This document shows positions 2,862 through 64,000 of a stretch of 64,000 nt of DNA, in pieces. A model generated the notes under the pieces. The model did no database searches. It had not been told where the DNA came from and saw only the letters and a program-made list of their open reading frames with translations. Source of the stretch: a virus. The first letter of the stretch is position 1. Every line of letters starts with the position of its first letter. The stretch is from IMG/VR virus record IMGVR_UViG_3300037325_000137, positions 1 through 64,000 of that record. One strand, 5' to 3'. The position numbers and the translations under genes were made by a program.

Positions 2862-3359
2862 TTATTCTGCTCTTCTTAACTTCATGTCTTCACGAAGTTT
2901 TTGTTGACGCTCTTCTGGTGTAATAGGTCTTTGATCTACGCATACGCCAGAATCGTCAAACTTATACATCATACCTTTTGATGTATCGTCAAATAAGAAT
3001 AAACGACCACTTTTACTTACTGACTTAGATTTGATGACTTCAATAAGACATTGCAAATCTTTTTTAACAGGATCTAGACGACCTTTCATTTCGTCCATTA
3101 GGTCTTTTTTCTCTTGCTCTAGCTTTGAGATATGAATACTCACATCTGCAAGTCTTGATTTTCTCTCTGCTATTTCATCTGAATTTAGACGCTTTGTGTA
3201 GTCACCTTCTTCTATCCCATAACAGATAGCTTCTAGGTGTCTAGCCATTTCAATTTTAGACATTCCATCTATAGAATCGTCTAACTTTCTTCCCAACTCA
3301 TATGGGTCTTGATTTTTTGTACTCATAATTACAGTTTTAAAATTAATCTTTATTACCAA
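2862..3359 (-). CDS. Coiled-coil hypothetical phage protein
   Basis: ORF in operon with 2100..2840; true start may be the internal ATG (MSTKNQD). Confidence 0.6.
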   Translation of the reverse strand: MVIKINFKTVIMSTKNQDPYELGRKLDDSIDGMSKIEMARHLEAICYGIEEGDYTKRLNSDEIAERKSRLADVSIHISKLEQEKKDLMDEMKGRLDPVKKDLQCLIEVIKSKSVSKSGRLFLFDDTSKGMMYKFDDSGVCVDQRPITPEERQQKLREDMKLRRAE

Positions 3360-5940: not shown

Positions 5941-6156
5941 TTATTTGCTTTTAAACTTTGATTTTTTAAACATAATTTCTTCGGTAGAAACATCTAAAGT
6001 TTTTGCAATAAGCTCTACAGTATTCATGCTTATGTTGCCATTTAATCTTTGAGACATGGATGGAGTACTTATGCCTATCATTTCGGCTAATGATTTATCA
6101 GTCTTAATGCCTTTACTTGACATTACATCATCTATATTTGATTCCTCTCTTGTCAT
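5941..6156 (-). CDS. Cro/XRE-family HTH regulator
   Basis: SLAEMIGISTPSMSQRLNG...IAKTLDV; lies behind a divergent promoter pair. Confidence 0.8.
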   Translation of the reverse strand: MTREESNIDDVMSSKGIKTDKSLAEMIGISTPSMSQRLNGNISMNTVELIAKTLDVSTEEIMFKKSKFKSK

Positions 6157-24800: not shown

Positions 24801-27800
24801 CCATTTATTAATTTTTCAATCGTATCTATAGACCTTTCTGCTGTAAAGTAATCTATAGACCCTGCGACAATTCTACCAGATTGCTTTTTAGATCTTCCTT
24901 TAGACAGCTCTAAAATAAACTTACCTCTTAATCTTTTATTTTCAACTCCTAAAGCTATGTCTTCTGCTTTGTCAAGTACTTCTTTAAGTTTAGCTTTTTG
25001 CTGTTGCTCTAAACTTCTATTATCTCCTTTTGTTTTTGATTTTTTACCTTCAAATTTGGTTAACTCTATAAGTGAATTAAAGTCACTTAGTTTCATAAAG
25101 CCAAACATTCTATTTTCAAAGCTGTCTTTTATGTAGTCTCTTACTGCTTTTTGTGTGTCTCTAACAGAATTTGTTTTGTCTCTTATTTTTTCATCAGCTA
25201 TACGTTTTTTCTCTTCATTACGAGATTTGGATTCGTTATATTTAGTTTCTAAATCAACTGCTAAAGCGTCAATAGCACTTAAAGCGGAATCTATATTTTC
25301 ATTTGTTGATTGCTCTATAATGCTTTCAATAGATTTTATGTTATTAAAAGTAATGTTTGAAAACCACTTGCCTTTTATAACTTCGTTTAAGTATTTTTGA
25401 ATTATGATTCTTCTGCTTTTTTTATCAGTTTTTTCTCCCTGTTCTATTTTTTTAGCATTTTCTCTAGCTTGCTGTAGTTCTGTTTTATTATTATTGTACT
25501 TAGTATCTAGTTTAGCAATTAAAGCGTCTATCTCCTTAATCGCTTTTAAGCCGTTAATATCTGTTTTAGCGTCTGCTACTATTTTTACAAGTTTTTTGGT
25601 ATCTGCATCATTTGCCTGTAGAGCTTGTGCTTTAGTCAGGTTAGCATCTATATAATCTTGTAATGCTTTCTTAACACCTTTTTCTGTTTTGTTTTTTTCG
25701 TTGGTCTTTTCTATTAGCTTTTGCTTAGTTGATCTTACGGCTTCCTCTTGTTCTATAACCGACTGCATAGTTGTATTGGGAGTTGCTGCGTCTTTTCTTT
25801 TTGCTGCATCACGACTAGCTTTTGTCTCTCTTCCAGTTATGTCTTTACCGCTTAGTATTTCGGCTGCTGCAAGGTCTGTAAACTGTTTTAGGTTAAGGTC
25901 AGCTAATTTGTCAGGTTTAATGTTTGATAGCCTTAAACCTGCTGCTATTCTCTTGAATAAAACTTTAAACCATTCTTTAAACCCACCGCTTTTAGCTTCA
26001 TCTAATATTTTAACTCCTTTTTCTCCTATCGCTATTGCAAGAGCTTCTTCTAGTTTTTGCTCTGGCGTAAGGTTATCATAAGCAGTATTATTTATAACAG
26101 CGTCATGATATTCCGTACCTTCAACTAGTTTAAGTCCTTTATCGTAAACGGCTTTATGATTTGCTTTCATGTAAGTATTCCACAAGTGACCAAACTCATG
26201 AACAAGTGTGGAAGAGTTTACTTTGTCGGAGTTTATATAAACTTTTCCTTGATAAACAAAACCATTAGGCGTTCTTACAAAGTCAGCTTGTGCTTGTACG
26301 TTTTCGTAGCCTATTTCTTTTAAAAACTCTACTATCTGCTCGTCTGTAAGAATAACTACATCATCAGCAAGGTTAGTCGGTATAAGTGTTCGTATTTGAT
26401 CTGCCACTTCTTGACTATCAATAACCTCTTGTGGTATTTCATTTTGACCATCTACTTGAAATGGTAGTTCGTCCATTTCCTCACCTACTTCCTGATCTAC
26501 TTGATCTAATTCTTGATTCGCCACGTTTGCTACTGCGTCTATATTAGAGTCAGTAGATTCAAGACCTGTTAGTTCTGTAAACTTATCTTTAAGACTAGAG
26601 ACTTCTGAACTTTCTGATTTTCTTTCTGATTTAGCTTGATTTATATAATCTGTTCCAGAAGTATATTCGTTTACAAAGCCTCTAACATCATCTTCACTAA
26701 CAACATTGTCGCTACCTTGAAATCCTGTTGACTGAACATCAATTGCATCTGTTTCTTGTTGAGTGTTTTCGTCTAATTTACGTTGTGCTGCTTCTATAAT
26801 AGCACCTAAAGTTGATGCTTTTTTGTTACCTCCTTTAAATCCTTGTGATAGATCTACTATTTCATATCCTTTAGTACCGTCTCGTTTATCTACTTTTTTA
26901 AATCTAAGCTCTTTAAAGGTTTCGGCAATAGAGTTTTTCTTAGCTTCATTACTTACTTCGTCTGTATTGACTTGACCGCTTTGCTCTGCTTCTTGTTGGA
27001 TTCTTATTTGACTAGCTACTTCCGATGGATTAGTGGAATTTACTGCTATTTCTTGTGAGTTTATAGATGGGTTGTCACTAGATTCTTGCGGTGTAAATTC
27101 ATTGTTGTCAAAATTATTATTTTCAACATAAGCGTCTATAGCAGCTTTCTCATTCTGTTTAGATACTTTCTTTTCTTTATTAAATGAATTTGTTACAACT
27201 ACCTTTCCATCTTGTAAGCTAACATCTAAAACATCATTGCCAAACCTTTGTCTAATAATAGGTTTAGGAGCTATGTCTATACTTGTGTTTACTTCAACCT
27301 CTCCTTGACTTGCTGTAGGTTCAGCGGTGGGTTGTACTGCGTTATCTTTCCCTTGCTCTGTGTCTGTGTCAGATGTAGGTCGAACGTCTGCATCAGCAGT
27401 AGTATCTCCTTGCGTTTGTGTTTCATCTACTCTTGTTTCATTTCTTCCTTGTAAACCTCTCTCGCTATCTCTATTTGCTTCGATTTCGGAAGACCTCTGA
27501 ATTTCTTCATCAACTCTTTGTTCAACAATTCTTTTTGCTTTTTCATCTGTGTTTATTTTAGTTTCTAATCCTCCTTCTTTTTGTAATGCAAAGTCTAAAA
27601 GCATACCGTTAGCAAGCTCTACAGCTTCTTCTCCTTTAACACTTATAGTATCACCATTAGAGTGTGTTACAACAACTCTTTTTACATTACCATCTTTATC
27701 TGTCTTTATACTTTTAAGACCTTTTTGCTGTGTTGTTATTGTTCCTTTTTCAAAAGAATCACCATTATATTGAAAAGAACCATCTTGATTAACTTCAAAT

Positions 27801-30800
27801 TTAATTACTGTTGGTGTAATAGGCAGTGATTTTTGCTGTAAAGCATCTTGTACTGTTCCTAAAGAAAACTCTTGTTTGCCATCTGTAAAAACAATTTCGT
27901 TACCATCAAAAAACACATCACCAACAAGTTTTTCTTTGTTTATTGGATTAACATATTCTTGTTGTGATTTCTGTATTCTTTCTAAGAATGTTCCTTTTGC
28001 ATCTTGTGGTACGTTATTCGGTAGAGCAAGACTTCTTTTAACTTTATCTTTAAATATTTCAATAGAATCAGCGTTTTCAACGTCTTCGTTCTCTTCTAAG
28101 TATGCTTTGTAACTTTCTGTATGTTCTTCTGCTATACGATTAACTTCTTCATCACGATCTTTTTTAGGATCAATTTCTCCTTCAAGTCTAGTTACGGCAT
28201 CTTCTTCATTCTCTAACTCGTCAAAGTAAGTTTGATTGGAATCTGACGCTTGTGCTATTGCTGTTTGAGTATCTGTGCTTTCAGACTGTGTTTGCTCAAC
28301 TATATCTGTTCCTTCTGTATTTTCTTGTGTAGGGTTTTTAAAGTCTTCCACTCTTTCACTTAAAACTCTGCTTGCTTCTTCATTGTTTTTTATGTCTATA
28401 GATATAGTTCCGTTTGCTACTCCTTCGACAAAATTATCATCTGCTATTTTTTTATAAAGATCAGAACTGTTTGTGATAATTTCTTCTTGACCATCTATCG
28501 TAATAGTTGTTTTTACCTCTGCGGATTCTATTAACTTAGCTTTTTCAGCTTCTAAAGAAGCAAGCCTTTGTTCTAAGAAAACTGTTTCTGATACACTATC
28601 AAGAGTAAGTTCTGTTTTACTTAAAGGATTTGTAGCAGCAGATTTAATATTGGTAATTGTCAACTCTATAGCACTTGCTTGCTCACTTATTTCAACTACT
28701 CTTTTCTTATCTTGAACAGTTAAGTTATCGTAAGCTTCAAAAGTTCTTTTTATCAACTTACCATTCTCTGTGTTTATTTCTCTTATTCTACTTTGATAGG
28801 ACTGAATTATAGTTGTTTTATCTTCTTCGCTTGTTGATTCGCTTTCTGAAACCTCTTCTATTTTTCTTAGCAAAGTATTTGTTTCCTTTACGTTTTTTAC
28901 TATTGTTTTTCTAGAGTTTCTATCTCCTACTATATTACCTACAATTCCTGTTAAAGATGCAGTTCCAGACATCGCTCCACCAGCAGACATCCCTCCTATT
29001 GTTGCTTCCCATGTATTATCAAGAACGCTCTTTTTAGATCCGTCTTCGTTAAAGTTTTCTCCAAAAACATATTTATCAGTAAGGTTTGTAAAAAGTGTAA
29101 TACCTAATTCTTCACCTCCCTCACCAATAGTTCCTTTTCCAAATTCAATACCGCTATTTAAAGTTTTTTTTCTAAAGCTTTCAACCATTGCTGTTTGAAG
29201 TTTTGGCTTACCTATAGATAGTGTCGTTCTTTTTAAGGCTTTTAAGTTTCTTATTTTACCAAATTGAGCTAAAAAAAGTTCTACTCCTGCTGACGCATAA
29301 GAAACAGCCATTATTTCTGTTTCGCTAGGCTCTTGTATAGACTCTAATTGAGATTTACGTTTGTTTAATGCTGGTCTGTTTTGGATTGGTAAATTTTCTT
29401 TTAAAAGATCTTTATTTATTTGGTTTAAATCTTTTTGGTTATCAATCGTTCTTTGTCTAGTAGCTAATTCGGCACTAGCTTGTTGTGAAGCGAAAAAAGA
29501 AGCTTGACCTACGTAAGGTATCGATAATTGAACTAATGTTGGTGTTGTATCTAGAAGAGTATTTTTTACAAATTCCCCAAAATCAGCTATGCCATCTACT
29601 TGGTCTAAGGATATTTTTTCTGTTAATACGTTTTTTCTGTATTCATTAATAGTAGCTACTCTTGATAAAGCTTCTTCTCTTATTCTTATAGTGTTAGCAT
29701 CACCAGTCTCCATTTTACCAGTCTCTTCATTAAAAACAGGTATGTTAACGTTAAATAATTTTTCACCAGAATACAATAGTCCAGATCCTATTTCTGCAAA
29801 ACCAGTGCTTAAAGTTGCTTTTGTTTGAGTAGCAAAATCATAAGTTTTTTTAAGTAGTTCTTTTTCTTCTTCAAATGTCCCTAAAGAGTTTTCACTCTCC
29901 ATAGATTCATCTAAAACAGTTTGAGATTGTGCTGCTAATTCTTGACGCTGCACGACTAAACTTTCTAATTCTATTTTTTTATTTTCAAAGTCTTCTTTAA
30001 AAAGCTGTTGATCCTCTATCGTAAGATCAGGGTTATCCTTTATCGATTTGTTTATTTCGTCAAGACCGTTTGACAAAGACTCAATATTAAGGTCTATATC
30101 TGCAAATTCTTTGTTGGCTTTCGATATTGTTTTGTTTGCCTTGAATATTATGTTTTGATTTACTTGCTCTTCAATAGCAACTAACTCTAATACTTTTTTT
30201 CTTTTTTCTGGATCTAGGTCATTTAAAAACTCTGTCTTCTTTCTTTTGGTAAAAGCTGTTTCAGCACTACCACTATCTAGTTCTTGTTGTCTTTGTCTAT
30301 TTAGCTCTTTAATTTCTTTTAATCTCTCTTTTTCAAAGTTTTTGTCACTTCCGAAAATTTTTGAGAAAGAAAAGTTTTTTAAGTCATTTTCTACACTTCC
30401 TAAAAAGCCTAGTTTTTCTCTTCTATTATCTAAGGTAATTTCGCTTTTAGATTCGGTTATAGTAGACCTTTCTTCGTCACTAATATTCCTTAAATTAATA
30501 AACTCTTGATAAGAGTTCTTAGTTTCTTGATCAGTTTTAGATATTACTTCATTATATTTTTTAGCAACTAAACTTTCAGAAAAATCAGCGTCAAACTCTA
30601 TAGGTCGAAAATCTAAAGGTTGACTTTTAGGTATTGCTGTTTGTGACACCGAAGACAAAGACTCCACCTCGTTTGATATATCCGATACGCCACTTTCCAC
30701 ACTTGAAGTAACAGTCGTAGTTTCTTTTTTTTTTACTTCATCAACTTTTACAGGCTCTTGTGTTGGCTGTTCTACAAGTTCTTGATTTAAGTCACCAAAG

Positions 30801-30991
30801 TATTCACTATAAAATTTATTTGAATCTAAATCAGTTAGTTTATTTTCTTTAAGATAACTATATATTTCATTGCTTTTTTCTTCACTAGAATATTTTGTAG
30901 AAAAAGTTTCAAAATCTAAATCTGTAAGACTTTCTGATTTTAAATAGTCATAAAGCTCTTTTCTTTTAATTGGATCAGTATTGTTTTCCAT
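21857..30991 (-). CDS. Giant virion ejection/polyvalent protein with zincin-like metallopeptidase domain
   Basis: 3044 aa; LVHEFGH...EEALA; long helical and low-complexity regions; follows the tail genes. Confidence 0.7.
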   Translation of the reverse strand: MENNTDPIKRKELYDYLKSESLTDLDFETFSTKYSSEEKSNEIYSYLKENKLTDLDSNKFYSEYFGDLNQELVEQPTQEPVKVDEVKKKETTTVTSSVESGVSDISNEVESLSSVSQTAIPKSQPLDFRPIEFDADFSESLVAKKYNEVISKTDQETKNSYQEFINLRNISDEERSTITESKSEITLDNRREKLGFLGSVENDLKNFSFSKIFGSDKNFEKERLKEIKELNRQRQQELDSGSAETAFTKRKKTEFLNDLDPEKRKKVLELVAIEEQVNQNIIFKANKTISKANKEFADIDLNIESLSNGLDEINKSIKDNPDLTIEDQQLFKEDFENKKIELESLVVQRQELAAQSQTVLDESMESENSLGTFEEEKELLKKTYDFATQTKATLSTGFAEIGSGLLYSGEKLFNVNIPVFNEETGKMETGDANTIRIREEALSRVATINEYRKNVLTEKISLDQVDGIADFGEFVKNTLLDTTPTLVQLSIPYVGQASFFASQQASAELATRQRTIDNQKDLNQINKDLLKENLPIQNRPALNKRKSQLESIQEPSETEIMAVSYASAGVELFLAQFGKIRNLKALKRTTLSIGKPKLQTAMVESFRKKTLNSGIEFGKGTIGEGGEELGITLFTNLTDKYVFGENFNEDGSKKSVLDNTWEATIGGMSAGGAMSGTASLTGIVGNIVGDRNSRKTIVKNVKETNTLLRKIEEVSESESTSEEDKTTIIQSYQSRIREINTENGKLIKRTFEAYDNLTVQDKKRVVEISEQASAIELTITNIKSAATNPLSKTELTLDSVSETVFLEQRLASLEAEKAKLIESAEVKTTITIDGQEEIITNSSDLYKKIADDNFVEGVANGTISIDIKNNEEASRVLSERVEDFKNPTQENTEGTDIVEQTQSESTDTQTAIAQASDSNQTYFDELENEEDAVTRLEGEIDPKKDRDEEVNRIAEEHTESYKAYLEENEDVENADSIEIFKDKVKRSLALPNNVPQDAKGTFLERIQKSQQEYVNPINKEKLVGDVFFDGNEIVFTDGKQEFSLGTVQDALQQKSLPITPTVIKFEVNQDGSFQYNGDSFEKGTITTQQKGLKSIKTDKDGNVKRVVVTHSNGDTISVKGEEAVELANGMLLDFALQKEGGLETKINTDEKAKRIVEQRVDEEIQRSSEIEANRDSERGLQGRNETRVDETQTQGDTTADADVRPTSDTDTEQGKDNAVQPTAEPTASQGEVEVNTSIDIAPKPIIRQRFGNDVLDVSLQDGKVVVTNSFNKEKKVSKQNEKAAIDAYVENNNFDNNEFTPQESSDNPSINSQEIAVNSTNPSEVASQIRIQQEAEQSGQVNTDEVSNEAKKNSIAETFKELRFKKVDKRDGTKGYEIVDLSQGFKGGNKKASTLGAIIEAAQRKLDENTQQETDAIDVQSTGFQGSDNVVSEDDVRGFVNEYTSGTDYINQAKSERKSESSEVSSLKDKFTELTGLESTDSNIDAVANVANQELDQVDQEVGEEMDELPFQVDGQNEIPQEVIDSQEVADQIRTLIPTNLADDVVILTDEQIVEFLKEIGYENVQAQADFVRTPNGFVYQGKVYINSDKVNSSTLVHEFGHLWNTYMKANHKAVYDKGLKLVEGTEYHDAVINNTAYDNLTPEQKLEEALAIAIGEKGVKILDEAKSGGFKEWFKVLFKRIAAGLRLSNIKPDKLADLNLKQFTDLAAAEILSGKDITGRETKASRDAAKRKDAATPNTTMQSVIEQEEAVRSTKQKLIEKTNEKNKTEKGVKKALQDYIDANLTKAQALQANDADTKKLVKIVADAKTDINGLKAIKEIDALIAKLDTKYNNNKTELQQARENAKKIEQGEKTDKKSRRIIIQKYLNEVIKGKWFSNITFNNIKSIESIIEQSTNENIDSALSAIDALAVDLETKYNESKSRNEEKKRIADEKIRDKTNSVRDTQKAVRDYIKDSFENRMFGFMKLSDFNSLIELTKFEGKKSKTKGDNRSLEQQQKAKLKEVLDKAEDIALGVENKRLRGKFILELSKGRSKKQSGRIVAGSIDYFTAERSIDTIEKLINGNFDFESKYEELFSKNGLAKKGKRGTEKQQNAKDIVNKLDELIDDILYTEREIPNSESGETELVAKIELTEKEAEDLKNLQVAKDFLDSLIKNNKYANKLINASLDYILELKAEGRSILKSKKAADKAILDQQRQEAYDAIDSKKQLGSKEIDKPLSNIKDNVSKSRSAIKISIQFLKGYSRGFYQNFRSISEAFKRTGDKGSALLGLDKVLAKYDLSENTRDSIIIEWNKEITEIKELAFGSFADSDINVIKKSLGFISRSKFKRAKADWALSAQENINRTYPDGTVDVTKFSVSTLLDVILKAKDPKNLIRLAKQGFDEKAINEINDKLSDEVKDYGNKIMEFYQSKYDQVNEVYKKIFYRDMPFDEFYSGKLNVDKPNSAKDFSQDLFSGIVSNGSVHSGSSKAKKEHDHAIIVQPVDMSTNQYINEMSRFIAYAEVEKEFNNIVKDETFEKLALLNIGLEGGMMIDYLKKFQKTEIYEDGKRSAAERVVNTITGSFAKYTLGAKLFNLPIQMMSALNGQSSLPNNLTAKEWLDAHKNIISEAAYLFKNSEFLKIRYSAEQMVKVLASVDTNRQLKDFQFLGDRSKMVTDILTEVYDQALDTGMYAIKAGDAMGIMGVVPVYTAAKARIRKENPNFTEQQVLDESMLVFENIANNTQQGQTKGSKTVVQRDAFARLLVSFGSTIILDMRESSLRYKDLKRHINKMASNNENIGVIYDKLGYDVNDFKHLEPSNTVGKNIRGFVNYGFSQPLFYALWGVVKISGVAAAPAAIYGAVQTLGYLMSGDDDELDKMSEEQKDIARVLLTGQLLDDPILGNAFKYYLDKEILRKEFTFGGIGNVFALQEIEKLESYFERRQNSKTPETKEKYTKLLITQMTGMGLGLPKHAMTIALFNEELHDENRGGFTASERARIYAGASFFGVDKVREERTGVTLQKIIERNLDQDYKDDFYKENPRKSSSNNLPPLPSTSMNKLPSLPK

Positions 30992-43501: not shown

Positions 43502-43798
43502 GTTAGCACACATTAAAACTATCTAATATATATTTCGCTAATTTTAAGGCTTGCTCTTTATTTAAGTAAGTATGTGCATCTCCTTGAAAATCTCCCTCTA
43601 TCTCAATCTCAAAGTCATTATCCTTGTCTACTGGGTTTATCACAAAATTATCAAGTGATAAACGTGTGCTAACACTTGGTATAGTGCATTGCTCGGTTTC
43701 GGTTTTTTTACTATCTGTATTCATAATTCAAAGTTTTTGTGTAATTAATTAAGTTCGTGCTATAAGGTCGCAACGACACCATACCATATCCGTTATTA
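43502..43798 (+). mobile_element. Solitary integron-like cassette outside the array
   Basis: GTTAGCACACATT(43502)...AACGTGTGCTAAC(43673), then arms GGTATAGTGCATTGC / GCAACGACACCATACC and GTT at 43792. Confidence 0.75.
43503..43724 (-). CDS. Cassette-encoded hypothetical protein
   Basis: Starts in the attC-like loop; stop TAA lies within the GTTA core. Confidence 0.7.
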   Translation of the reverse strand: MNTDSKKTETEQCTIPSVSTRLSLDNFVINPVDKDNDFEIEIEGDFQGDAHTYLNKEQALKLAKYILDSFNVC

Positions 43799-56712: not shown

Positions 56713-56941
56713 AAAAATCGATTATTGAATTGTGAGCCTTTAATATTTTAATTAGATTCATATAAGTGCTATTATCTTGTGTTTCTTTTATAAATATTTC
56801 TAAGAACTCTTTGTGAGTAATAGGCTTGTAATTTATAAAGAAATCATATTTAAGACTAGGATTAGATGTGATTATATTTCCTATTTCTTGAATATTGTAG
56901 GATTTAAACCTGTGACCTAAATTATTTCTAATTTTATACAT
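56693..56941 (-). CDS. Hypothetical protein translationally coupled to the integrase
   Basis: ATG overlaps the integrase stop codon. Confidence 0.6.
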   Translation of the reverse strand: MYKIRNNLGHRFKSYNIQEIGNIITSNPSLKYDFFINYKPITHKEFLEIFIKETQDNSTYMNLIKILKAHNSIIDFYEKQDK

Positions 56942-57750
56942 TAAATAGGCATTTGAATTTTGCTTAAATGATTTTTTGAAACGTGGGTGTAAATTTCAGT
57001 TGTCTTAGAGCTTTGATGCCCCGCAATAGATTGGATTATCCTTAAATCAGTACCTCCCTCTAGTAAGTGAGTGAAGCAACTATGCCTAAGCTGATGCATA
57101 TAAGCATCTTCTTTAATATACTTTTTAATTATTTTATTACAAGATGTGGCTGAATACTGTAAAGAAGACTGACCGTTAAAAAGATATTCTTTTGGTCTAT
57201 GTTTTTTAAAGTAATCCCTAAGTGTTTTTAGTAGCCCATTAGACAAAGGAACAACTCTATCTTTCTTGCCTTTAGCTTGAATTATATGAATCAATCCTCT
57301 ATTTGAATCAATGTTTTCTATTTTCAGATTTATTATTTCTGAAACCCTTAATCCGCAACTATATGCTGCGGATAAAATAGCTTTATGTTTCATGTTTTTT
57401 ATAGATAATATTTTTTCTGTAAGAATTTTTTTATCTATTATTTGGGGTAGCTTTTTTTCTTTTCTAGGTCTTGAAAAATCTACTTTATCGTATTTTTTAT
57501 TCAGAACTTTTTTGTAAAGAAACTTGATTGAGCTTATTATTTGATTTTGTTGCGATATAGAGCTGAAATTATAATTTTCTAAATAAGATTTAAAATCATT
57601 ACTATCTAGCTTAGAAGGAGACTTTTTATTGACTCTTAAAAATTCTTCAACGTAATAACTATATATTTTTACAGTATTTTTACTGTAGTTAAAATAGTTC
57701 AATTTTGAAATGAAATTCTGCAGAAAAGTGTGTTTAGTTTTGCTTAACAT
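56941..57750 (-). CDS. Tyrosine recombinase, integron-integrase-like but lacking the IntI insertion
   Basis: SAM-like N-terminus (YSKNTVKIY); catalytic R (GLRVSE), K (KGKKDR), HQLRH, GH, Y (TTEIYTHV); 269 aa. Confidence 0.9.
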   Translation of the reverse strand: MLSKTKHTFLQNFISKLNYFNYSKNTVKIYSYYVEEFLRVNKKSPSKLDSNDFKSYLENYNFSSISQQNQIISSIKFLYKKVLNKKYDKVDFSRPRKEKKLPQIIDKKILTEKILSIKNMKHKAILSAAYSCGLRVSEIINLKIENIDSNRGLIHIIQAKGKKDRVVPLSNGLLKTLRDYFKKHRPKEYLFNGQSSLQYSATSCNKIIKKYIKEDAYMHQLRHSCFTHLLEGGTDLRIIQSIAGHQSSKTTEIYTHVSKNHLSKIQMPI

Positions 57751-57799
57751 ATTGATTTATATTGATTTGTTAGTTATGGTTGATATATAGTAGTTAGCA
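57751..57799 (+). other. attI-like site
   Basis: ATTGATTT direct repeats (57751, 57761) and GATATATAGTA-G|TT at 57793 where the first cassette begins; no hairpin. Confidence 0.6.
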
Positions 57800-58084
57800 A
57801 ACATTATTCAAATAATCACAGTACATTTTTGCCTGTTCTTCGCTATGTATAAAGAACACTACCTCTATACCTTTGCCATCGAGTACCGCTTTACCTTGTT
57901 TTCTGCCAACTCTAAAAGGTGGTGTATATTTATTAGCATCATAACGTTTGCTAACACCAGATAAAATTAATGCCTCGTCTACTGCATTTTTAATAAGTCC
58001 TATACATTCTTCTTTTGCTAATGAAGTTCCTACCCAACTTTTTAAATTTTGTGCATGTTTATCAATTATTTGCTCTTTAGTCAT
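57794..58084 (-). CDS. Cassette 1 hypothetical protein
   Basis: Starts in the attC1 loop; stop lies in the GTTA core. Confidence 0.7.
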   Translation of the reverse strand: MTKEQIIDKHAQNLKSWVGTSLAKEECIGLIKNAVDEALILSGVSKRYDANKYTPPFRVGRKQGKAVLDGKGIEVVFFIHSEEQAKMYCDYLNNVC

Positions 58085-58147
58085 TGTCTATTTATTTAAT
58101 TATTGTTATTATTTATCGGCACTAATCTTATCTGCGGTACGTTAGCT
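57949..58147 (+). repeat. attC-like site 1
   Basis: TGCTAAC-ACC-AGATAAAATTAATGCC ... GGCACTAATCTTATCT-GCGGTAC-GTTAGCT. Confidence 0.8.
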
Positions 58148-58155
58148 ACAAGTGC

Positions 58156-58875
58156 TTAATTTAGTTGATTAAACAAAGTTGGTGCTTCAATCTCTTTTTC
58201 TTTTTTTTTCCCCACCCTTTCACTCGCAATATCAAAATAATCCTGTTGCATTTCAATTCCAATAAATCTTCTATTTAGGTTTTTACAAGCAACTCCTGTT
58301 GTACCACTACCCATAAAAGGGTCTAATACTACTTCGTTTTCATTAGTTGAGTTGTTTATATAAAATTCCATTAATTCTATTGGTTTTTCTGTTGGGTGTA
58401 CTTTACTCCCAATTATATTATTAAAAGAATGTACTGTTTTGCTTCCGCCAATGTCATTTATGTATTTAGATTTTCCTTTTCTAAAAAATATAGTGTACTC
58501 GCAATTCTTCATATAAAATTGAGAAGGTGTGCAGTTGTTTTTTTGCCAAACTAAAAAGTTTTGTATTTTAAATCCTGCTTTTTCTATCTCGTTTGCCATT
58601 TTTAGTAAATTAGAAGAGTTTACCATCACATAGTTTTGAGTTCCATCTTTTAGTATTCTAAACATTTCTGGCAACCATTCACTAAATTTAGGAACACTCC
58701 TCATTAGTTCTCTATTTCCTTTCAATATACCTTTTGGTCTAATACTGTTTTTGCCATTACTATCACCTCCTGTTATTATTTTATAAGGAGGGTCAGTAAC
58801 TACACAATCAATACTTTCGCTTGGTAATGTTTTTAATATTTCAAGGGCATCACCCATTTTTAAATCTATATTCAT
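58156..58875 (-). CDS. Cassette 2: DNA N6-adenine/N4-cytosine methyltransferase (beta class)
   Basis: TDPPY, HPTEKP, VLDPFMGSGTT. Confidence 0.92.
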   Translation of the reverse strand: MNIDLKMGDALEILKTLPSESIDCVVTDPPYKIITGGDSNGKNSIRPKGILKGNRELMRSVPKFSEWLPEMFRILKDGTQNYVMVNSSNLLKMANEIEKAGFKIQNFLVWQKNNCTPSQFYMKNCEYTIFFRKGKSKYINDIGGSKTVHSFNNIIGSKVHPTEKPIELMEFYINNSTNENEVVLDPFMGSGTTGVACKNLNRRFIGIEMQQDYFDIASERVGKKKEKEIEAPTLFNQLN

Positions 58876-58975
58876 AATGTTTTAATTTTATCAAATTAAT
58901 TTGCCAACGCTCAAAAAAGAAAATAAAAAGGTTCAGTTCTATTAATTAAGTTTAGGTGTTTAAAGTCGCACCAGT

Positions 58976-59032
58976 AGGTAACACTGTATAAAAGCCATTG
59001 AAAATAACGGCTCTTATACCCATCCGTTAGCA
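58976..59032 (+). repeat. attC-like site 2 (57 bp)
   Basis: AGGTAAC-ACT-GTATAAAAGCC ... GGCTCTTATAC-CCATCC-GTTAGCA. Confidence 0.8.
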
Positions 59033-59036
59033 ACAA

Positions 59037-59279
59037 TTAATTGCCCTGTAAGTAATTGTCTGCAATCCATTCTTTACTTACAAACCTATTTCCTCCACCT
59101 TTTTCAAGGCTTGTTAAAAGGTCAATTAACAGTTCCCTTCGGTTGCTAACATCGTTTAACCGTAATTGCTCGGTTACGTACTTATCTATGAAGTCTGTTA
59201 ACCATTCTACCTTTTCATTTCCAGTCATATCGTTTCTTGATACAAGTTGGTTTAATTTTTCAATCTCTGTTATTTTCAT
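59037..59279 (-). CDS. Cassette 3 hypothetical protein
   Basis: Starts in the attC3 loop; arm read as QLRLNDVSNR. Confidence 0.7.
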   Translation of the reverse strand: MKITEIEKLNQLVSRNDMTGNEKVEWLTDFIDKYVTEQLRLNDVSNRRELLIDLLTSLEKGGGNRFVSKEWIADNYLQGN

Positions 59280-59343
59280 CTGTTCTTATTTATTAAGTTT
59301 TGTTATTAATTCACGCAACTACGGTTACACGTAGCCGTTGTAG
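59144..59343 (+). repeat. attC-like site 3
   Basis: TGCTAAC-AT-CGTTTAACCGTAATTGC ... GCAACTACGGTTACACG-TAGCC-GTT. Confidence 0.8.
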
Positions 59344-59348
59344 TGCAT

Positions 59349-59645
59349 TTACATTACGTTTCGCTCGATACTTATGTTTTTATCAGTAACAACTACTATA
59401 AAGCTTGTTCTTTGCACCGCCAAAGGGGCTTTTTTTTCAAGATGTTTAAGAACGTGGTTTGCACCATTATTTACTATATCACGTCTAGTTTTTAATTGAT
59501 GAAGTTTGTTTTGTACTTGCTCAATTTCGGCTTCCAATTCTTCTTTCTCTAAAGCTATATTCACTAATATATCAGCCCCTTTTATTTCCTCGCCTTGAAT
59601 AAGGTCAGTAATTCCAGAGAAACTTAGGTCGTCAATTTTTTTCAT
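59349..59645 (-). CDS. Cassette 4 coiled-coil hypothetical protein
   Basis: ORF between cognate inverted repeats; start taken at MKKIDD. Confidence 0.7.
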   Translation of the reverse strand: MKKIDDLSFSGITDLIQGEEIKGADILVNIALEKEELEAEIEQVQNKLHQLKTRRDIVNNGANHVLKHLEKKAPLAVQRTSFIVVVTDKNISIERNVM

Positions 59646-59659
59646 AGCAAAAAAACGCA

Positions 59660-59791
59660 CTACAACACTGTATAAAAATAATAGCCTGTTGTAGTGTCTT
59701 TTTAGTGGCTATTACTCACTTATTAATTAATTGTTTAACTTAAACTTTTCGCTTATTTATTCGGCTACTATTCTTATACTAAACGTTGTAA
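59660..59791 (+). repeat. attC-like site 4
   Basis: TACAAC-ACT-GTATAAAAATAATAGCC ... GGCTACTATTCTTATAC-TAAAC-GTT. Confidence 0.85.
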
Positions 59792-59795
59792 GTAA

Positions 59796-60029
59796 TTAAG
59801 GTTCGAGATACCTCAAAGGCACTTCTTTACTCCAAAAACCACCCTTATCAATGTTCTGTACTAACGCTCTTGGTTCGTCATAATATTCTTGTGTTTTACC
59901 ATCTTGAAATATTGGATAATACACCAACATCCATCTGTCTTTTTTACCATCCATTTTATAAACGCTTTCGTTACGCTTATGATTTTTCCAAATCGGGTGG
60001 TTTAAGGCTTTTTCTAAATCTATGTTCAT
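59796..60029 (-). CDS. Cassette 5 hypothetical protein
   Basis: ORF between GTTGTAAGTAATTAA and TTAACTACTTACAAC. Confidence 0.7.
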   Translation of the reverse strand: MNIDLEKALNHPIWKNHKRNESVYKMDGKKDRWMLVYYPIFQDGKTQEYYDEPRALVQNIDKGGFWSKEVPLRYLEP

Positions 60030-60049
60030 TTCTTATTTGCTTTAACTAC

Positions 60050-60252
60050 TTACAACACTATATATAATTAATATAAAAGGGGCGCAGTCCAACTATCCGT
60101 TATTCCTTTCGGGTCAAGCCTAAGCCCCCACGGAAGGAACGTTTTACAGGCTTTGGACACCTTCAATTTCACTATCTAAAACGCTGTTGGTAAACCCACT
60201 AATTTCTGCATTTTTAACCCCTTTTAAACTAATCATATATTTTACGTTATAA
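60050..60252 (+). repeat. attC-like site 5 with a structured GC-rich loop
   Basis: TACAAC-ACT-ATATATAATTAATATAAAAGGGG ... CCCCTTTTAAACTAATCATATAT-TTTAC-GTT. Confidence 0.75.
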
Positions 60253-60519
60253 ACAATACTCTTTTTGTGTATATGGTTCAGAGTAGAAGCATTTATCAGT
60301 ACTATCAAATTTAATATTTCTATACCAAGTTATTTCTGTATTTGTTGTTTTTCCTGTTCTACTACTGCAATCACAATCTTTATGACATTGGCAACTACCA
60401 TTATCAATAGAAGTGTATTTTTTAGTAAATATTCTATAAGAAACACCATCTATAATTGTGATTTGCAATGCTTCCATTTCTATATTCAATCTTTTAGGGT
60501 TTAACAATCTTTCTCGCAT
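60247..60519 (-). CDS. Cassette 6 Cys-rich hypothetical protein
   Basis: CQCHKDCDC; stop in the GTTA core; start taken at MRERLL. Confidence 0.65.
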   Translation of the reverse strand: MRERLLNPKRLNIEMEALQITIIDGVSYRIFTKKYTSIDNGSCQCHKDCDCSSRTGKTTNTEITWYRNIKFDSTDKCFYSEPYTQKEYCL

Positions 60520-60533
60520 AACTTCCGTACAGT

Positions 60534-60628
60534 TTATAACACAGGCTATAAATAAAAGCCCTGTCAAGGTTATTGTTGTGAATCGAACTTTGTGTTTAGG
60601 GCTTCAATTCATAGCCGAGCCGTTATCT
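60534..60628 (+). repeat. attC-like site 6
   Basis: TATAAC-ACA-GGCTATAAATAAAAGCCCT ... AGGGCTTCAATTCATAGCC-GAGCC-GTT. Confidence 0.8.
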
Positions 60629-60799
60629 TTAATAATCAAACTCTTCCTCATTTAATACATCAAAGTGAATATCCTCATTTAATACATCAAAGTGAATATC
60701 CTCTATTTTGTTTTTAATAAACAGTCTTTTAATTCGATAGATAACTAAAGATAACAATGTATAAAATGCATAGCTTAATTTCGTTCTTAAATTTTTCAT
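60629..60799 (-). CDS. Cassette 7 small protein (56 aa) with a 9-aa tandem duplication
   Basis: MKNLRTKLSYAFYTLLSLVIYRIKRLFIKNKIEDIHFDVLNEDIHFDVLNEEEFDY; 27-bp repeat x2 at 60645-60703. Confidence 0.55.
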   Translation of the reverse strand: MKNLRTKLSYAFYTLLSLVIYRIKRLFIKNKIEDIHFDVLNEDIHFDVLNEEEFDY

Positions 60800-60886
60800 C
60801 TGTTCTGTTTTTAAAGTTTATAATTTATAATTAATTCAAAGTCTGTGGTGTTTAGGTCGCTACGCACCTTATACTAAACGTTGTGT
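60749..60886 (+). repeat. attC-like site 7
   Basis: GATAAC-AAT-GTATAAAATGCATAGC ... GCTACGCACCTTATAC-TAAAC-GTT. Confidence 0.8.
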
Positions 60887-60894
60887 GTAATACT

Positions 60895-61137
60895 TTATTT
60901 AGGTTCGTTTACAGCATTACTATCTACTTTTTTCCAAGGACGTTCTATCATATTACAACCTGCTTGATACCAAGTTTGTATTTGTAATTTATTACATTTT
61001 GTACACTTTCTAAAATGAGCATATCTATTATCTTCTTTTCTACCACCGTCCCAATACTTATAAGGATGATATAAATTAAAAAAACAAAGTAATTTTTGCA
61101 ATGCTTTAGGTTTGTCTATTCTTAAAACTTTTTCCAT
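60895..61137 (-). CDS. Cassette 8 small Zn-binding protein (DUF1660-like)
   Basis: LLC....H......RKCTKC. Confidence 0.65.
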   Translation of the reverse strand: MEKVLRIDKPKALQKLLCFFNLYHPYKYWDGGRKEDNRYAHFRKCTKCNKLQIQTWYQAGCNMIERPWKKVDSNAVNEPK

Positions 61138-61171
61138 TTTAATAAAGTTTGTGGCTTAAATTCCGTATTAC

Positions 61172-61267
61172 ACACAACAATGTATATAGTTTATAAGCCA
61201 ATTAATATTTGTTTTTAATTTGTAAATTTCTGATATGGCTTACAAAACCATATACTCAACGTTAGGC
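61172..61267 (+). repeat. attC-like site 8
   Basis: CACAAC-AAT-GTATATAGTTTATAAGCCA ... TGGCTTACAAAACCATATAC-TCAAC-GTT. Confidence 0.85.
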
Positions 61268-61271
61268 ACAA

Positions 61272-61577
61272 TTAAGGTTTGCGTCCTAATAACTTACTTA
61301 GCTTCATCCCCAACCACTCAGGGCAAGGTATAGCTACTACCCATCTTAAATAAGGCAATATACCTACAAAACCAATCCCCCAATGCTCTGTTGCAACTAT
61401 TGAAACTTCAAAGCTAAATGCGTCTAAAGTCCAAAATGTAAATATTAGCCATCTAAAACTAAAACTACTTGTATTGTGTTCGTCTGCTTTCCTTATTTCT
61501 ATTAAGGGTATTAATGGAAATACATTTTTGTTGTACCATTTTTCTGTTCTCATTCTTCCTGATGCTGTTTGTGACAT
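61272..61577 (-). CDS. Cassette 9 hypothetical protein
   Basis: ORF between GTTAGGCAC and GTGCCTAAC. Confidence 0.7.
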   Translation of the reverse strand: MSQTASGRMRTEKWYNKNVFPLIPLIEIRKADEHNTSSFSFRWLIFTFWTLDAFSFEVSIVATEHWGIGFVGILPYLRWVVAIPCPEWLGMKLSKLLGRKP

Positions 61578-61587
61578 AATTAAAAGT

Positions 61588-61681
61588 GCCTAACAATAGC
61601 TAAAGTTAATAGCCTCAATAGGTCTTGTTATAATTTGATGGTTAGTATTAAAGGCTACTAACCTTAGCCTAGACGTTATGA
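61588..61681 (+). repeat. attC-like site 9
   Basis: GCCTAAC-AATA-GCTAAAGTTAATAGCCT ... AGGCTACTAACCTTAGC-CTAGAC-GTT. Confidence 0.85.
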
Positions 61682-61834
61682 TGCAATTAAAATTTTAAGC
61701 ATCTCGTTTAACTTCCCTACACATTGAGCATAGTATCGTTCATTATCTTCCTGTTTCATTATTTTAGCTACTTCATAAAGGTCTGTATAAATACCAATTT
61801 TCTTTATTACAATACTTTTTAGTTCATCCATCAT
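61676..61834 (-). CDS. Cassette 10 small helical protein
   Basis: MMDELKSIV...; stop in the GTTA core. Confidence 0.55.
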   Translation of the reverse strand: MMDELKSIVIKKIGIYTDLYEVAKIMKQEDNERYYAQCVGKLNEMLKILIAS

Positions 61835-61849
61835 TAAAATTTTAAAAGC

Positions 61850-61934
61850 ACATAACAATGTATAAAATTAATGCGCTATGATAATTAGTGTTAAATTTTT
61901 AAGTATGTGGTTAGCGCACTAATCTTATACTAAC
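61850..61934 (+). repeat. attC-like site 10 (downstream GTT core apparently deleted)
   Basis: CATAAC-AAT-GTATAAAATTAATGCGCTA ... TAGCGCACTAATCTTATAC-TAAC, with no GTT at the expected position. Confidence 0.75.
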
Positions 61935-61944
61935 TGCAATGTTG

Positions 61945-62193
61945 CTATTTAAAGTTTTGCCTAAACGGCTTGTTACATTTTGGACAAGAAGTGCCTAAAT
62001 ACAAGCCTTTGATTATCGGTTCGCAACACTGTTCGCTCTGCCTTACAACAACGGGTATAGAAAATAATTCAGAAGGCATCAGTCTTTCTATCACGTCTAT
62101 TGCACTCCATATTTCTCTTGATTCATAACTGTGATGTATTGAGTCAAAGTGTTCTGCTCTTTTTTCTAGTGTTTTAATAACGTCTGCTTTCAT
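61945..62193 (-). CDS. Cassette 11 protein with C-terminal Zn-ribbon
   Basis: Starts in the attC11 loop; arm read as LFSIPVVVRQ; CC...CPKC. Confidence 0.7.
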   Translation of the reverse strand: MKADVIKTLEKRAEHFDSIHHSYESREIWSAIDVIERLMPSELFSIPVVVRQSEQCCEPIIKGLYLGTSCPKCNKPFRQNFK

Positions 62194-62253
62194 CTTTTAA
62201 GTTTTTGCGTTTTAAATCCTCCTAAATTAAATTCCATACCCAAACCGTTAGCA
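62043..62253 (+). repeat. attC-like site 11
   Basis: TTACAAC-AAC-GGGTATAGAAAATAATT ... AATTAAATTCCATACCC-AAACC-GTT. Confidence 0.75.
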
Positions 62254-62373
62254 TTAATACTCAGTACCTAAGTATTCTACTAAATAAGGGTAGTCCCAAC
62301 TTTTACTGCTACTGTAATACATTTTCCAGTAACCTCTATTATTCTTTATTATTTCAGTCCATTTACTTGTCAT
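62254..62373 (-). CDS. Cassette 12 micro-protein (39 aa)
   Basis: MTSKWTEIIKNNRGYWKMYYSSSKSWDYPYLVEYLGTEY between GTTAGCATTAATAC and GTACTAATGCTAAC. Confidence 0.55.
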   Translation of the reverse strand: MTSKWTEIIKNNRGYWKMYYSSSKSWDYPYLVEYLGTEY

Positions 62374-62400
62374 AGTTTCTATTTTTTAAGTCCGTACTAA

Positions 62401-62453
62401 TGCTAACAATATGTAAAAAACATTAAAACGATGTGTTATACTAGACGTTAGCA
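62401..62453 (+). repeat. attC-like site 12 (minimal, 53 bp)
   Basis: TGCTAAC-AATATGTAAAAAACAT...ATGTGTTATAC-TAGAC-GTT. Confidence 0.65.
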
Positions 62454-62732
62454 AACATTTATGTTGTTGCTATCTATAAAGCTTTTAGGATTTCCGCAAC
62501 CTATTAAAAACTCTGCTCCGTTACCTAATTTAAAGTAACATCTATCCCAATCATTGCTTCTATCGAAAGTAAAATTTTCACCTTTTTTTATGGTATAATA
62601 ACACCCTTTCCAACTCAAATTCTCCCTTCTATTGTTAGGTATATTACCCACATCAGTGGCTTCTATGGGTGTGCTACCATACCTACCTTTATCAATAAAA
62701 ACTCTAATATCTTCTGTTGCTTGTAAATTCAT
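62448..62732 (-). CDS. Cassette 13 hypothetical protein
   Basis: Start taken at MNLQAT; stop in the GTTA core. Confidence 0.7.
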   Translation of the reverse strand: MNLQATEDIRVFIDKGRYGSTPIEATDVGNIPNNRRENLSWKGCYYTIKKGENFTFDRSNDWDRCYFKLGNGAEFLIGCGNPKSFIDSNNINVC

Positions 62733-62744
62733 AATTAAACGATT

Positions 62745-62838
62745 TGCTAACACAACCTATACACCATAAAGCAATATAGTATTGTGCTAATATTAAACAT
62801 TGTGCTACGCTTTACGGTGCATAGCTTTACCGTTGGCG
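62745..62838 (+). repeat. attC-like site 13
   Basis: TGCTAAC-ACAAC-CTATACACCATAAAGC ... GCTTTACGGTGCATAG-CTTTACC-GTT. Confidence 0.8.
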
Positions 62839-62844
62839 GTAATA

Positions 62845-63195
62845 CTACATTAGTACCTTATCCATCATTTCATTTATGTTCTCCGCAATTTTTTCATCAT
62901 AACCTCTATTGTAAAATTCATCGCCAGTAGTCAAATGATAAGTACCTATGTTATCCAAATACTGTTTCATTTTTTCATAAGGTTCAGTATTTTCATACCC
63001 TATCAAATTAAGATAAGACCAATAACATTTAATAGAAAATTGCTCTGTGTTTGTTCCTCTATCTGTTCTTTTTTCGTTTTGTCTTTGTATCCATAAGGCT
63101 TGTTCTTTCTTGTAGTCTGTGTACTTTAAAGCCGTACTACTGCCAACAAAAAATATAGCAAATGCTTTTCGTAATCTTTGGGTAAATTGTTTCAT
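62845..63195 (-). CDS. Cassette 14 hypothetical protein
   Basis: Starts in the attC14 loop; arm read as AFAIFFVGSS. Confidence 0.7.
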   Translation of the reverse strand: MKQFTQRLRKAFAIFFVGSSTALKYTDYKKEQALWIQRQNEKRTDRGTNTEQFSIKCYWSYLNLIGYENTEPYEKMKQYLDNIGTYHLTTGDEFYNRGYDEKIAENINEMMDKVLM

Positions 63196-63261
63196 ACTTC
63201 TAATTTTTAGTTCATTTAAGTTAGAGTGTTGTTGGCACTTGCCATCTTCAAACCGTTAGCC
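63141..63261 (+). repeat. attC-like site 14
   Basis: TGCCAAC-AAAAAATATAGCAAATGC ... GCACTTGCCATCTT-CAAACC-GTT. Confidence 0.75.
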
Positions 63262-63522
63262 ACCATTTGAAAAACCGCACTCATCCAAGAAGCTTTGTCC
63301 AACAGGAGAACCTAACCATTGAATTAAGTTTACGCAAATATCTTCTTCTTTTTCGGACAACCACTCTTTAGGTTGCGTTTGTCTATCATTAGACCACCCA
63401 TTCACAATAGCACTTAGGCTTTTTCTGGCAGAACCATCATGATTGAACATTTTAATAAATTTATCGTGAAATTCTTTTTCTTTAGGATTGTCATTAAATC
63501 TGTATTCTTTATTGCCTTTCAT
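63256..63522 (-). CDS. Cassette 15 hypothetical phage protein
   Basis: NPKEKEF...IQWLGSPVGQSFL; stop in the GTTA core. Confidence 0.75.
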   Translation of the reverse strand: MKGNKEYRFNDNPKEKEFHDKFIKMFNHDGSARKSLSAIVNGWSNDRQTQPKEWLSEKEEDICVNLIQWLGSPVGQSFLDECGFSNGG

Positions 63523-63533
63523 AGTAAAACGGT

Positions 63534-63656
63534 GGCTAACAATGTATATAGCAAATAGCCTTATTAGCCATTTTAGAAACTACTTGCTTGTTTATAATTT
63601 ATTTACTTTTTACTTAATTCTGTGATAGGCTACTTGCCATATACTAAACATTGTAG
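63534..63656 (+). repeat. attC-like site 15 (core ATT instead of GTT)
   Basis: GGCTAAC-AAT-GTATATAGCAAATAGCCT ... AGGCTACTTGCCATATAC-TAAAC-ATT. Confidence 0.8.
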
Positions 63657-63750
63657 TGCATTAAAACGTTCGATTCGCCACAACAACACGCTATATAAAT
63701 AATGCTTGGTTTCGTGCTGTAATCAAAGTTTAGCGCTTTTAATGCCATAA

Positions 63751-63981
63751 TTAAATATTTTTAAAAACCCATTCACCATTTAGTTTCCAAGTTTCTTTAT
63801 CATAGTAAACTTCTACTACTATATTTTGCATTTTATTATGGCAACGTAAATTTCCACAAGAGAAGTCTACTGCTTCAATACCTAATTCATCATTTACATC
63901 AATAAAATCTTGGTTTTTACTCGTTGCTATCAACCTTACTGGGTATTCTGCTTTCTTTTTTAATACTTCTTTTAAGTTCAT
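63751..63981 (-). CDS. Hypothetical protein (probably a further cassette)
   Basis: ORF near the window end; flanking site incomplete. Confidence 0.6.
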   Translation of the reverse strand: MNLKEVLKKKAEYPVRLIATSKNQDFIDVNDELGIEAVDFSCGNLRCHNKMQNIVVEVYYDKETWKLNGEWVFKNI

Positions 63982-64000
63982 TTTTAAAAATATTTAATTA

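Follow-up and report, generated by a model that had tools for sequence, protein, structure and literature searches.

The locus described here raises the question of whether a phage can carry an integron-like system for gene capture of its own. The stretch of DNA that we analysed (64,000 nucleotides, hereafter the window) comprises bases 1-64000 of the viral contig IMGVR_UViG_3300037325_000137, which is 78,375 bp long in all, has 127-bp direct terminal repeats and originates from a salt-lake metagenome. On its minus strand, a tyrosine recombinase gene adjoins an attI-like site and a row of small genes that are separated by hairpins (Table 1), and we consider it likely, with good confidence, that these elements constitute a self-contained integron-like gene-capture module in a phage. 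The carrier is a Gundel-like, probably virulent phage of Flavobacteriaceae. Its best match in the phage database is a structural protein 48% identical to its counterpart in Tenacibaculum phage Gundel_1, a podovirus of 78.8 kb without a reported integrase. Close relatives were found neither in the phage database nor among the IMG/VR relatives of the recombinase, which share no backbone gene with the window phage; consequently, cassette variation cannot be demonstrated within the window array itself.

From 53 kb to 72.5 kb every gene is located on the minus strand, and gene packing is tight except between 57.75 and 64.13 kb, where the intergenic spaces measure 43-228 nt. A preliminary description, made from the sequence alone, had noted a chain of GTT...AAC units beginning 43 bp from the recombinase start codon and at least 15 one-gene cassettes in this region. 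Indeed, the first GTT is found at 57793, 43 nt from the ATG, and we counted 16-17 units up to an outermost boundary at genome position 64062-64064, slightly beyond the end of the window. About 11 units possess full hairpins, the others mini or half sites, which occur after 58084, 59279, 60799 and 62193. One unit is empty (63651-63697), and another, only 134 bp in length, lacks an open reading frame (ORF) of its own, though a 56-aa ORF (60629-60799) begins in its hairpin loop. This mini cassette also holds two copies of a 27-nt direct repeat, GAGGATATTCACTTTGATGTATTAAAT, at 60640-60700. All cassette ORFs are directed towards the recombinase.

Read along the minus strand, the intergenic spaces follow the pattern (3′ arm)YAAC ↓ G(T)TTAGTATA - variable stem-loop - TATACAKT ↓ GTTR(5′ arm) ... 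ATG, where the arrows mark the edges of the AAC and GTT boxes. The spacers are 5 nt in length after YAAC and 3 nt before GTTR, the first stem pairs are usually GTATA/TATAC, and the start codon usually follows 10-25 nt past the 5′ arm, although the distance is greater in certain cassettes and reaches about 95 nt in that of the methyltransferase. Array sites thereby display the architecture of attC sites, R''(..AAC) - spacer - L'' - variable loop - L' - spacer - R'(GTT..). A structure detector that demands only AAC...GTT plus a helix, allows no gaps and penalises G.T and A.C equally returned 10 sites on both strands of the whole 78-kb genome; 9 of these fall within 58980-62834, without exception on the minus strand.

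In the preliminary description, inverted repeats were stated to match across each gene and not across each hairpin, and all five arm pairs quoted there were recovered. Examining 14 cassettes of the window, we observed that the two arms of the same cassette match at 8.7 of 12 positions, as compared with 4.1 across one hairpin and 4.3 in arms paired at random; when partners were shuffled 20,000 times, the observed match sum was never reached (p < 5e-5). Likewise, 84 arm pairs from other, unrelated viral contigs exhibit Watson-Crick pairing of 0.55-0.9 over positions 1-12, and arm position 8 is a T.G wobble in 74% of them. This pairing bears on the notion that the hairpins are selfish miniature inverted-repeat elements, inserted between genes and without a part in gene movement. 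Such elements would be expected to form a repeated, structured family found in many genomes, as these hairpins do, but here the arms pair across genes and not within the element, the sites are clustered at one locus beside a recombinase, and whole genes travel with the hairpins in the phage isolates considered below, which renders this explanation hardly credible.

Cassette movement became apparent in Polaribacter phage Freya, of which ten isolates with genomes of 43,978 to 48,920 bp were described by Bartlau et al. (PMC8776804). The seven isolates compared represent seven genotypes; in the stretches compared, their genomes are 99.7-100% identical outside one region, and the genotypes differ only by cassettes. 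All junctions are located at YAAC↓ on the sense strand, with shared sequence down to 3 nt, and at several of them AAC alone is common to both parental sequences. The right junction, AAC↓ACCCCTATAAC..., is present in six of the seven genotypes, 47 nt before the recombinase ATG. Five genotypes are nested at this attI-like site, F1 < F2 < F5 < F9 < F10 (cassettes A; A,B; A,B,C; A-D; A-E), a pattern that would result from adding or removing cassettes at this position. Moreover, F6 corresponds to F5 plus two different new genes at that site, and F8 to F10 minus one internal cassette, leaving a hairpin-to-hairpin junction. Thus, rather than a fixed gene order or boundaries unrelated to GTT, which the preliminary description regarded as speaking against mobility, Freya displays gain and loss of cassettes exactly at the AAC/GTT triplet. 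As to the integration at G↓TT proposed there, the junctions place the crossover at the AAC/GTT triplet, the finest resolution they allow; a cut at AA↓C, to which G↓TT is complementary, would agree with them.

Danklef, a sister species, has a recombinase gene truncated at its 5′-end, the first ~95 codons being gone (cut at residue ~96). The 12.2-kb array region is 100% identical in two isolates, and the remaining genomes are 97-99% identical. Considered as a second natural experiment, these isolates were dropped, as they show no array variation and their size differences lie elsewhere; with the recombinase truncated, they serve as a contrast only. The break in Danklef_1 (L186, about 5990-6100; also in L187) is a cassette-type junction, ..GTATTACACACAAC↓GTGCGATT.., which suggests, as far as the sequence tells, a recombination event into the recombinase gene itself.

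Parts of the window array recur in other phages. The two-gene block formed by the methyltransferase gene and 57794-58084 is homologous to a block of the virulent Polaribacter phage P12002L, where the arms differ and are still complementary. In addition, the gene 59037-59279 has ~70% nucleotide identity to Freya_8 and Freya_10, and the gene 61945-62193 is shared with Gundel_1 and P12002L. In other salt-lake metagenomes, single window cassettes with other neighbours reside on contigs that end at the predicted boundaries; this comparison was performed on assembled Logan contigs, in which circles, starts and rare variants are invisible, and the joints have short sides and belong to other organisms. 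The recombinase and the backbone are uncovered in runs X2, X3 and X5, which is uninformative by itself. The source run contains an 815-nt contig at ~9x phage depth that matches only a 69-nt cassette end (58141-58209), so that a related cassette is abundant in another genome of the same sample.

The composition of the stems reveals which strand folds. On the window minus strand, the non-Watson-Crick stem positions comprise 18 G.T and no A.C, and the minus strand adopts the more stable fold in six out of six sites. The same bias was observed in 284 sites of 80 viral loci (G.T:A.C = 341:51) and in 48 bacterial sites (64:10). Of 35 sites, 25 have G.T at stem position 7 and 33 at stem position 12, almost all other positions being Watson-Crick. 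With the ungapped detector, the stems show no consistent bulge that would correspond to extrahelical L-box bases, and one bacterial site has a bulged T. Polarity was compared with bacterial arrays of a 3.5-Mb chromosome, an Aequorivita metagenome-assembled genome and an Aquimarina genome, in which the cassette ORFs are located opposite the G.T-bearing strand, whereas in phage arrays they are located on it. Because the genes of the bacterial arrays are on the opposite strand, the G.T bias tracks the polarity of the sites and not transcription, and therefore reflects the structure of one folded DNA strand and not of RNA. This indicates that the hairpins fold as single-stranded DNA, like the bottom strand of integron attC sites. 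The reversed polarity in bacteria was recognised when a sequence-motif search of the bacterial loci yielded few matches in the phage orientation.

The same data speak to the idea that the hairpins are regulatory modules, such as promoters, terminators, mRNA-stabilising or PeSL-like elements, and that the genes between them are swapped by homologous recombination. PeSL stem-loops between small accessory genes of T4-type phages, reportedly described by Arbiol et al. in 2010, are said to mark the places of gene swaps, with the swapping attributed to homology. The window hairpins resemble them as repeated stem-loops at gene-swap places, and both the presence of a hairpin between all successive genes of a row that runs in one direction and the leader motifs, such as ACTTTGAATTA, conserved ahead of several start codons would be in keeping with regulation. 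However, the junctions share 3 nt only, the array comes with a recombinase and an attI-like site, and the bias points to single-stranded DNA, falling on the non-transcribed strand in the bacterial arrays. Moreover, the pairing of a cassette's own arms across its gene is not predicted by RNA regulation, and a scan that did not include Bacteroidota promoters revealed no excess of terminator-like or sigma-70-like sites; the hairpins do not resemble terminators. Hence, we regard a purely regulatory role as very improbable.

If the hairpins are recombination sites, the adjacent enzyme is the obvious candidate to act on them. In line with the preliminary description as an atypical tyrosine recombinase, its catalytic set is complete (R135, K160, H219, R222, H245, Y254), and alignment with IntI1 and the IntI of Shewanella phage M16-3 revealed that the IntI-specific insertion (~31 + 11 aa) is absent. 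According to Pfam, a SAM-like N-terminal domain (Phage_int_SAM_4) precedes the Phage_integrase domain. The protein remains below every cutoff of the NCBIfam XerA/XerD/IntI models, scoring 157.7 bits versus a cutoff of 265 with TIGR02249, in two stretches, 180.5 versus 220 with XerA, 158.7 versus 329.6 with XerD and 147.7 versus 335 with XerC. Among solved structures, archaeal XerA, XerD and, over its N-terminal half only, VchIntIA come closest. Xer recombinases (XerA 4a8e and 5hxy; XerD 1a0p) are the best sequence matches and have the same two-domain architecture and a similar length; unlike them, the window enzyme falls under the family cutoffs, has no evident dif-like duplex site and adjoins a hairpin array. 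Upstream of the start codon, at a distance of ~30-45 nt, AAC followed by TAnnATATATA is present in 40 of 41 viral loci as opposed to 7% of control windows, a count also given for the form AAC-N(2-6)-WTATA. By its position at the head of the array next to the recombinase gene, this attI-like site is the putative insertion point of cassettes.

Recombinases 55-67% identical to the window enzyme are encoded on 80 IMG/VR contigs. In 43 of these contigs the sequence extends far enough upstream; 41 of the 43 have at least one structural site within 6 kb upstream of the recombinase gene on the same strand, and 30 have at least three; two or more sites within the same span downstream were found in 0 of 38 contigs. 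The co-occurrence of the sites with this recombinase clade, without which the preliminary description considered its interpretation untenable, is thereby apparent. Since the backbone genes that flank the module in the window phage were found on none of the 80 contigs, it is the module itself that is conserved and not its neighbourhood.

This conservation is pertinent to another explanation, namely that the array is a passive relic, a cluster of attC sites lacking an integrase (CALIN) that was taken over from an array on the host chromosome, or is served only by host recombinases, with the phage enzyme acting in lysogenic integration, multimer resolution or similar. Bacterial Flavobacteriia indeed have homologous arrays with recombinases of their own that are 40-52% identical, P12002L and Gundel_1 retain arrays although no recombinase homologue was found in either, and Bartlau et al. 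(PMC8776804) interpret the enzymes of Freya, Leef and Ingeline as lysogeny integrases. In contrast, the order and spacing of recombinase, attI-like site and array are kept in ~40 otherwise unrelated viral backbones, the variation in Freya is centred on a site 47 nt from the recombinase start, and the array is frozen in Danklef, where the recombinase gene is truncated. Furthermore, the phage cassettes are opposite in gene polarity to those of the hosts and are thus not simple copies. We therefore consider a relic or an array served only by the host unlikely.

A self-contained module has to be compared with the systems it resembles. With classical integrons, most closely with sedentary chromosomal integrons, it shares a tyrosine recombinase beside an attI-like site that heads an array of mostly one-gene cassettes, as well as imperfect palindromes with AAC/GTT boxes, unpaired spacers, a variable loop and one favoured strand. 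Likewise, the boundary is at the AAC/GTT triplet, the two ends of a cassette are complementary to each other, and new cassettes apparently go in beside attI. The differences comprise the missing IntI-specific insertion, the fixed G.T wobbles in stems without a visible conserved bulged base (which the ungapped detector could not find), arms that pair over ~12 bp and not ~7, and the carrier, a phage genome. In addition, the cassette genes of the window are found on the folding strand and run towards the recombinase, not away from it, which precludes their expression from a common Pc promoter. With the sites as reference for polarity, the recombinase gene of the phage is placed as intI1, with its 5′-end by attI and on the bottom strand, and the cassette genes are inverted, whereas in the flavobacterial arrays the cassette genes are canonical and the recombinase gene is inverted; all genes are co-directional in both layouts. 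As two defining features of integrons are lacking, the IntI domain and promoterless cassettes facing away, the module appears integron-like in its working and is no member of the family as defined.

Chromosomal arrays of Flavobacteriia (L139, L145 and L159) have the site grammar, the T.G at arm position 8 and the bottom-strand G.T bias in common with the window, and their recombinases likewise lack a large insertion. They differ in that the 3′-end of the recombinase gene abuts the array and the cassette genes are on the top strand, as in canonical integrons. In these loci and in a further one (L157), arrays of the window hairpin family are found directly downstream of AD-less recombinase genes. 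Many bacterial contigs stop less than 1 kb past the recombinase gene, as would happen if repeats interrupted the assembly.

Part of such an array has been reported in P12002L as a CALIN with two attC sites and no integrase, for which an origin from a bacterial integron was proposed (Qi et al. 2023, PMC9892861); in that study, HattCI alone called one window-type hairpin. The sites belong to the same hairpin family, of which the attC1 primer sequence is a typical member, and the two phages have a homologous methyltransferase cassette, whereas the window has ~16 sites, a dedicated recombinase and an attI-like site. Beyond this two-site 'CALIN', we found no description of the complete system of recombinase, attI-like site and array in the full-text literature. 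A ~70-nt array-end sequence, YAAC↓AACGGATAAAACAAG...AAAGTTTGAT, closes both of two separate arrays in P12002L (3056-3137 and 11090-11194). This sequence is the 'attC2' recombined by IntI1 in Qi et al.; AAAATCAAT is common to it and to the attI-like regions of Freya and the window phage. The IntI1 assay was rejected as a validation of the sites, as the typical hairpin attC1 failed and attC2 is an array-end junction.

Several observations weigh against a self-contained module. Five or six window sites are half, mini or degenerate, some arm pairs of the window are weak (5-6/12), and the fold z-scores are modest (-1 to -3). The Freya recombinase, which adjoins the mobile cassettes, is only 37% identical to the window enzyme. 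The arrays of P12002L and Gundel_1 imply that a host or helper enzyme can evidently serve. The IntI-type insertion, though not fully conserved in an integron-like subgroup, is reportedly essential for integron function (Smyshlyaev 2021, PMC8138268), so that recognition of folded sites would need another basis here. Lastly, P12002L_attC1 was the only one of six phage sites that IntI1 failed to recombine (PMC9892861), a failure that fits a family with its own enzyme and provides no positive evidence for it.

On the premise of a self-contained module, the minimal Xer/IntI-type recombinase of the window would act on hairpins formed by the single-stranded gene-sense (minus) strand. Recognition would be by shape, relying on the AAC/GTT box, the unpaired 5-nt and 3-nt spacers and the G.T wobbles at fixed stem positions. 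The enzyme would cut in or beside the 5′ AAC and exchange this strand with that of another hairpin or the attI-like site, and replication would presumably resolve the product. New cassettes would enter beside the recombinase gene. Excision, possible for every cassette, would release a circle in which the two arms of the cassette pair over ~12 bp with the T.G wobble at position 8. After integration, the hairpin of a cassette would be situated upstream of its own gene, with transcription towards the recombinase, possibly from promoters inside the cassettes.

Integrons are regarded as bacterial platforms defined by IntI with its special domain. If the window indeed carries such a module, folded-DNA cassette capture evolved, or persists, without this domain, and integron surveys requiring it overlook a whole family of such modules. 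Moreover, the fast turnover of small phage accessory genes, hitherto explained mainly by homologous or illegitimate recombination, would gain a mechanism. Going one step further, we incline, with considerable reserve, to the view that Bacteroidota and their phages share a distinct integron lineage, characterised by a minimal enzyme without the IntI domain and a G.T-wobble code, and that virulent phages with complete copies swap accessory (probably anti-defence) genes in one bloom season, drawing on a pool that mirrors the gene polarity of the host. A tractable test system is available in the Freya isolates, which already show seven array states and are in culture, as is their Polaribacter host.

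Table 1. Features of the module and of related sites in the window (all coordinates are window positions)
Feature	Coordinates	Strand	Basis
Xer/IntI-superfamily tyrosine recombinase, 269 aa, without IntI-specific insertion	56941..57750	(-)	Pfam Phage_integrase + Phage_int_SAM_4; alignment
attI-like site, sense strand ..TTTGCTAAC↓TACTATATATCAACC.., 43 nt before recombinase ATG	57751..57795	(-)	conserved motif; Freya right junction
Cassette array, 16-17 units	57793..64000, runs on to genome position 64064	(-)	site pattern, structure detector, arm test
N6/N4 DNA methyltransferase, cassette cargo	58156..58875	(-)	PF01555, E = 2e-41
Short attC-like hairpin at head of methyltransferase cassette	58980..59028	(-)	structure detector: 12 Watson-Crick pairs, 2 G.T
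AAC...GTT span, probably no true site: overlaps 5′ half of gene 59037-59279	59148..59339	(-)	structure detector
Mini hairpin GGCTACG..CCGTAG before GTTGCG, real head of the 59037-59279 cassette	within 59280-59337	(-)	gene coordinates, site pattern
attC-like hairpin	59664..59787	(-)	structure detector: 15 Watson-Crick pairs, 2 G.T, 0 A.C; minus folds better than plus
attC-like hairpin, long loop	60054..60248	(-)	structure detector
attC-like hairpin	60538..60624	(-)	structure detector, fold energies
attC-like hairpin, ORF 60629-60799 begins in loop	60753..60882	(-)	structure detector
attC-like hairpin	61176..61263	(-)	structure, fold energies
attC-like hairpin	61592..61677	(-)	structure detector, fold energies
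Degenerate attC-like hairpin: sense-strand 5′ AAC (plus-strand GTT, 61937-61939) replaced by GCA	61854..61939	(-)	site pattern
Short attC-like site	62405..62449	(-)	site pattern
attC-like hairpin	62749..62834	(-)	structure detector; minus -17.2 kcal/mol vs plus -11.0
Degenerate attC-like hairpin, ORF 62845-63195 begins in loop	63145..63257	(-)	site pattern
attC-like hairpin, 5′ triplet AAT not AAC	63538..63652	(-)	site pattern, fold energies
Solitary cassette at secondary site, 14 kb from array, arms GTTAGCACAC / GTGTGCTAAC	43502..43794	(-)	arms; leader homology

The cargo of the array consists of one orphan DNA methyltransferase, already named in the preliminary description and assigned by Pfam (Table 1), and ~14 small genes without assigned function. 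The methyltransferase likely has an anti-restriction function. Beyond this gene, searches of Pfam and PHROGs added only two families without known function. Three small Cys-rich cassette proteins had no Pfam match, and the label 'Zn-ribbon' given to such proteins in the preliminary description is unconfirmed.

The left flank of the solitary cassette resembles the attI-like site, and its ~130-nt leader is homologous to the leader of a Freya_10 cassette. Both leaders encode a common N-terminal peptide, MNT.SKK..EQCTIPSVS, and the C-terminal parts of the two proteins differ. Some ORFs, namely 43515-43724, 60629-60799 and 62845-63195 (minus strand) and also in Freya_10, have their start codon in the loop of the hairpin, and their reading frame crosses the stem and the GTT box before it enters the cassette body. 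In addition, two array ORFs open with similar hydrophobic N-termini.

Elsewhere in the window, other large ORFs that were scanned gave no Pfam match. A 3,044-aa ORF occupies 21857-30991 on the minus strand, and a 400-aa TnpB/OrfB_IS605 protein with HTH, OrfB and Cas12f-like TNB domains is encoded near the left genome end at 121-1323 on the plus strand.

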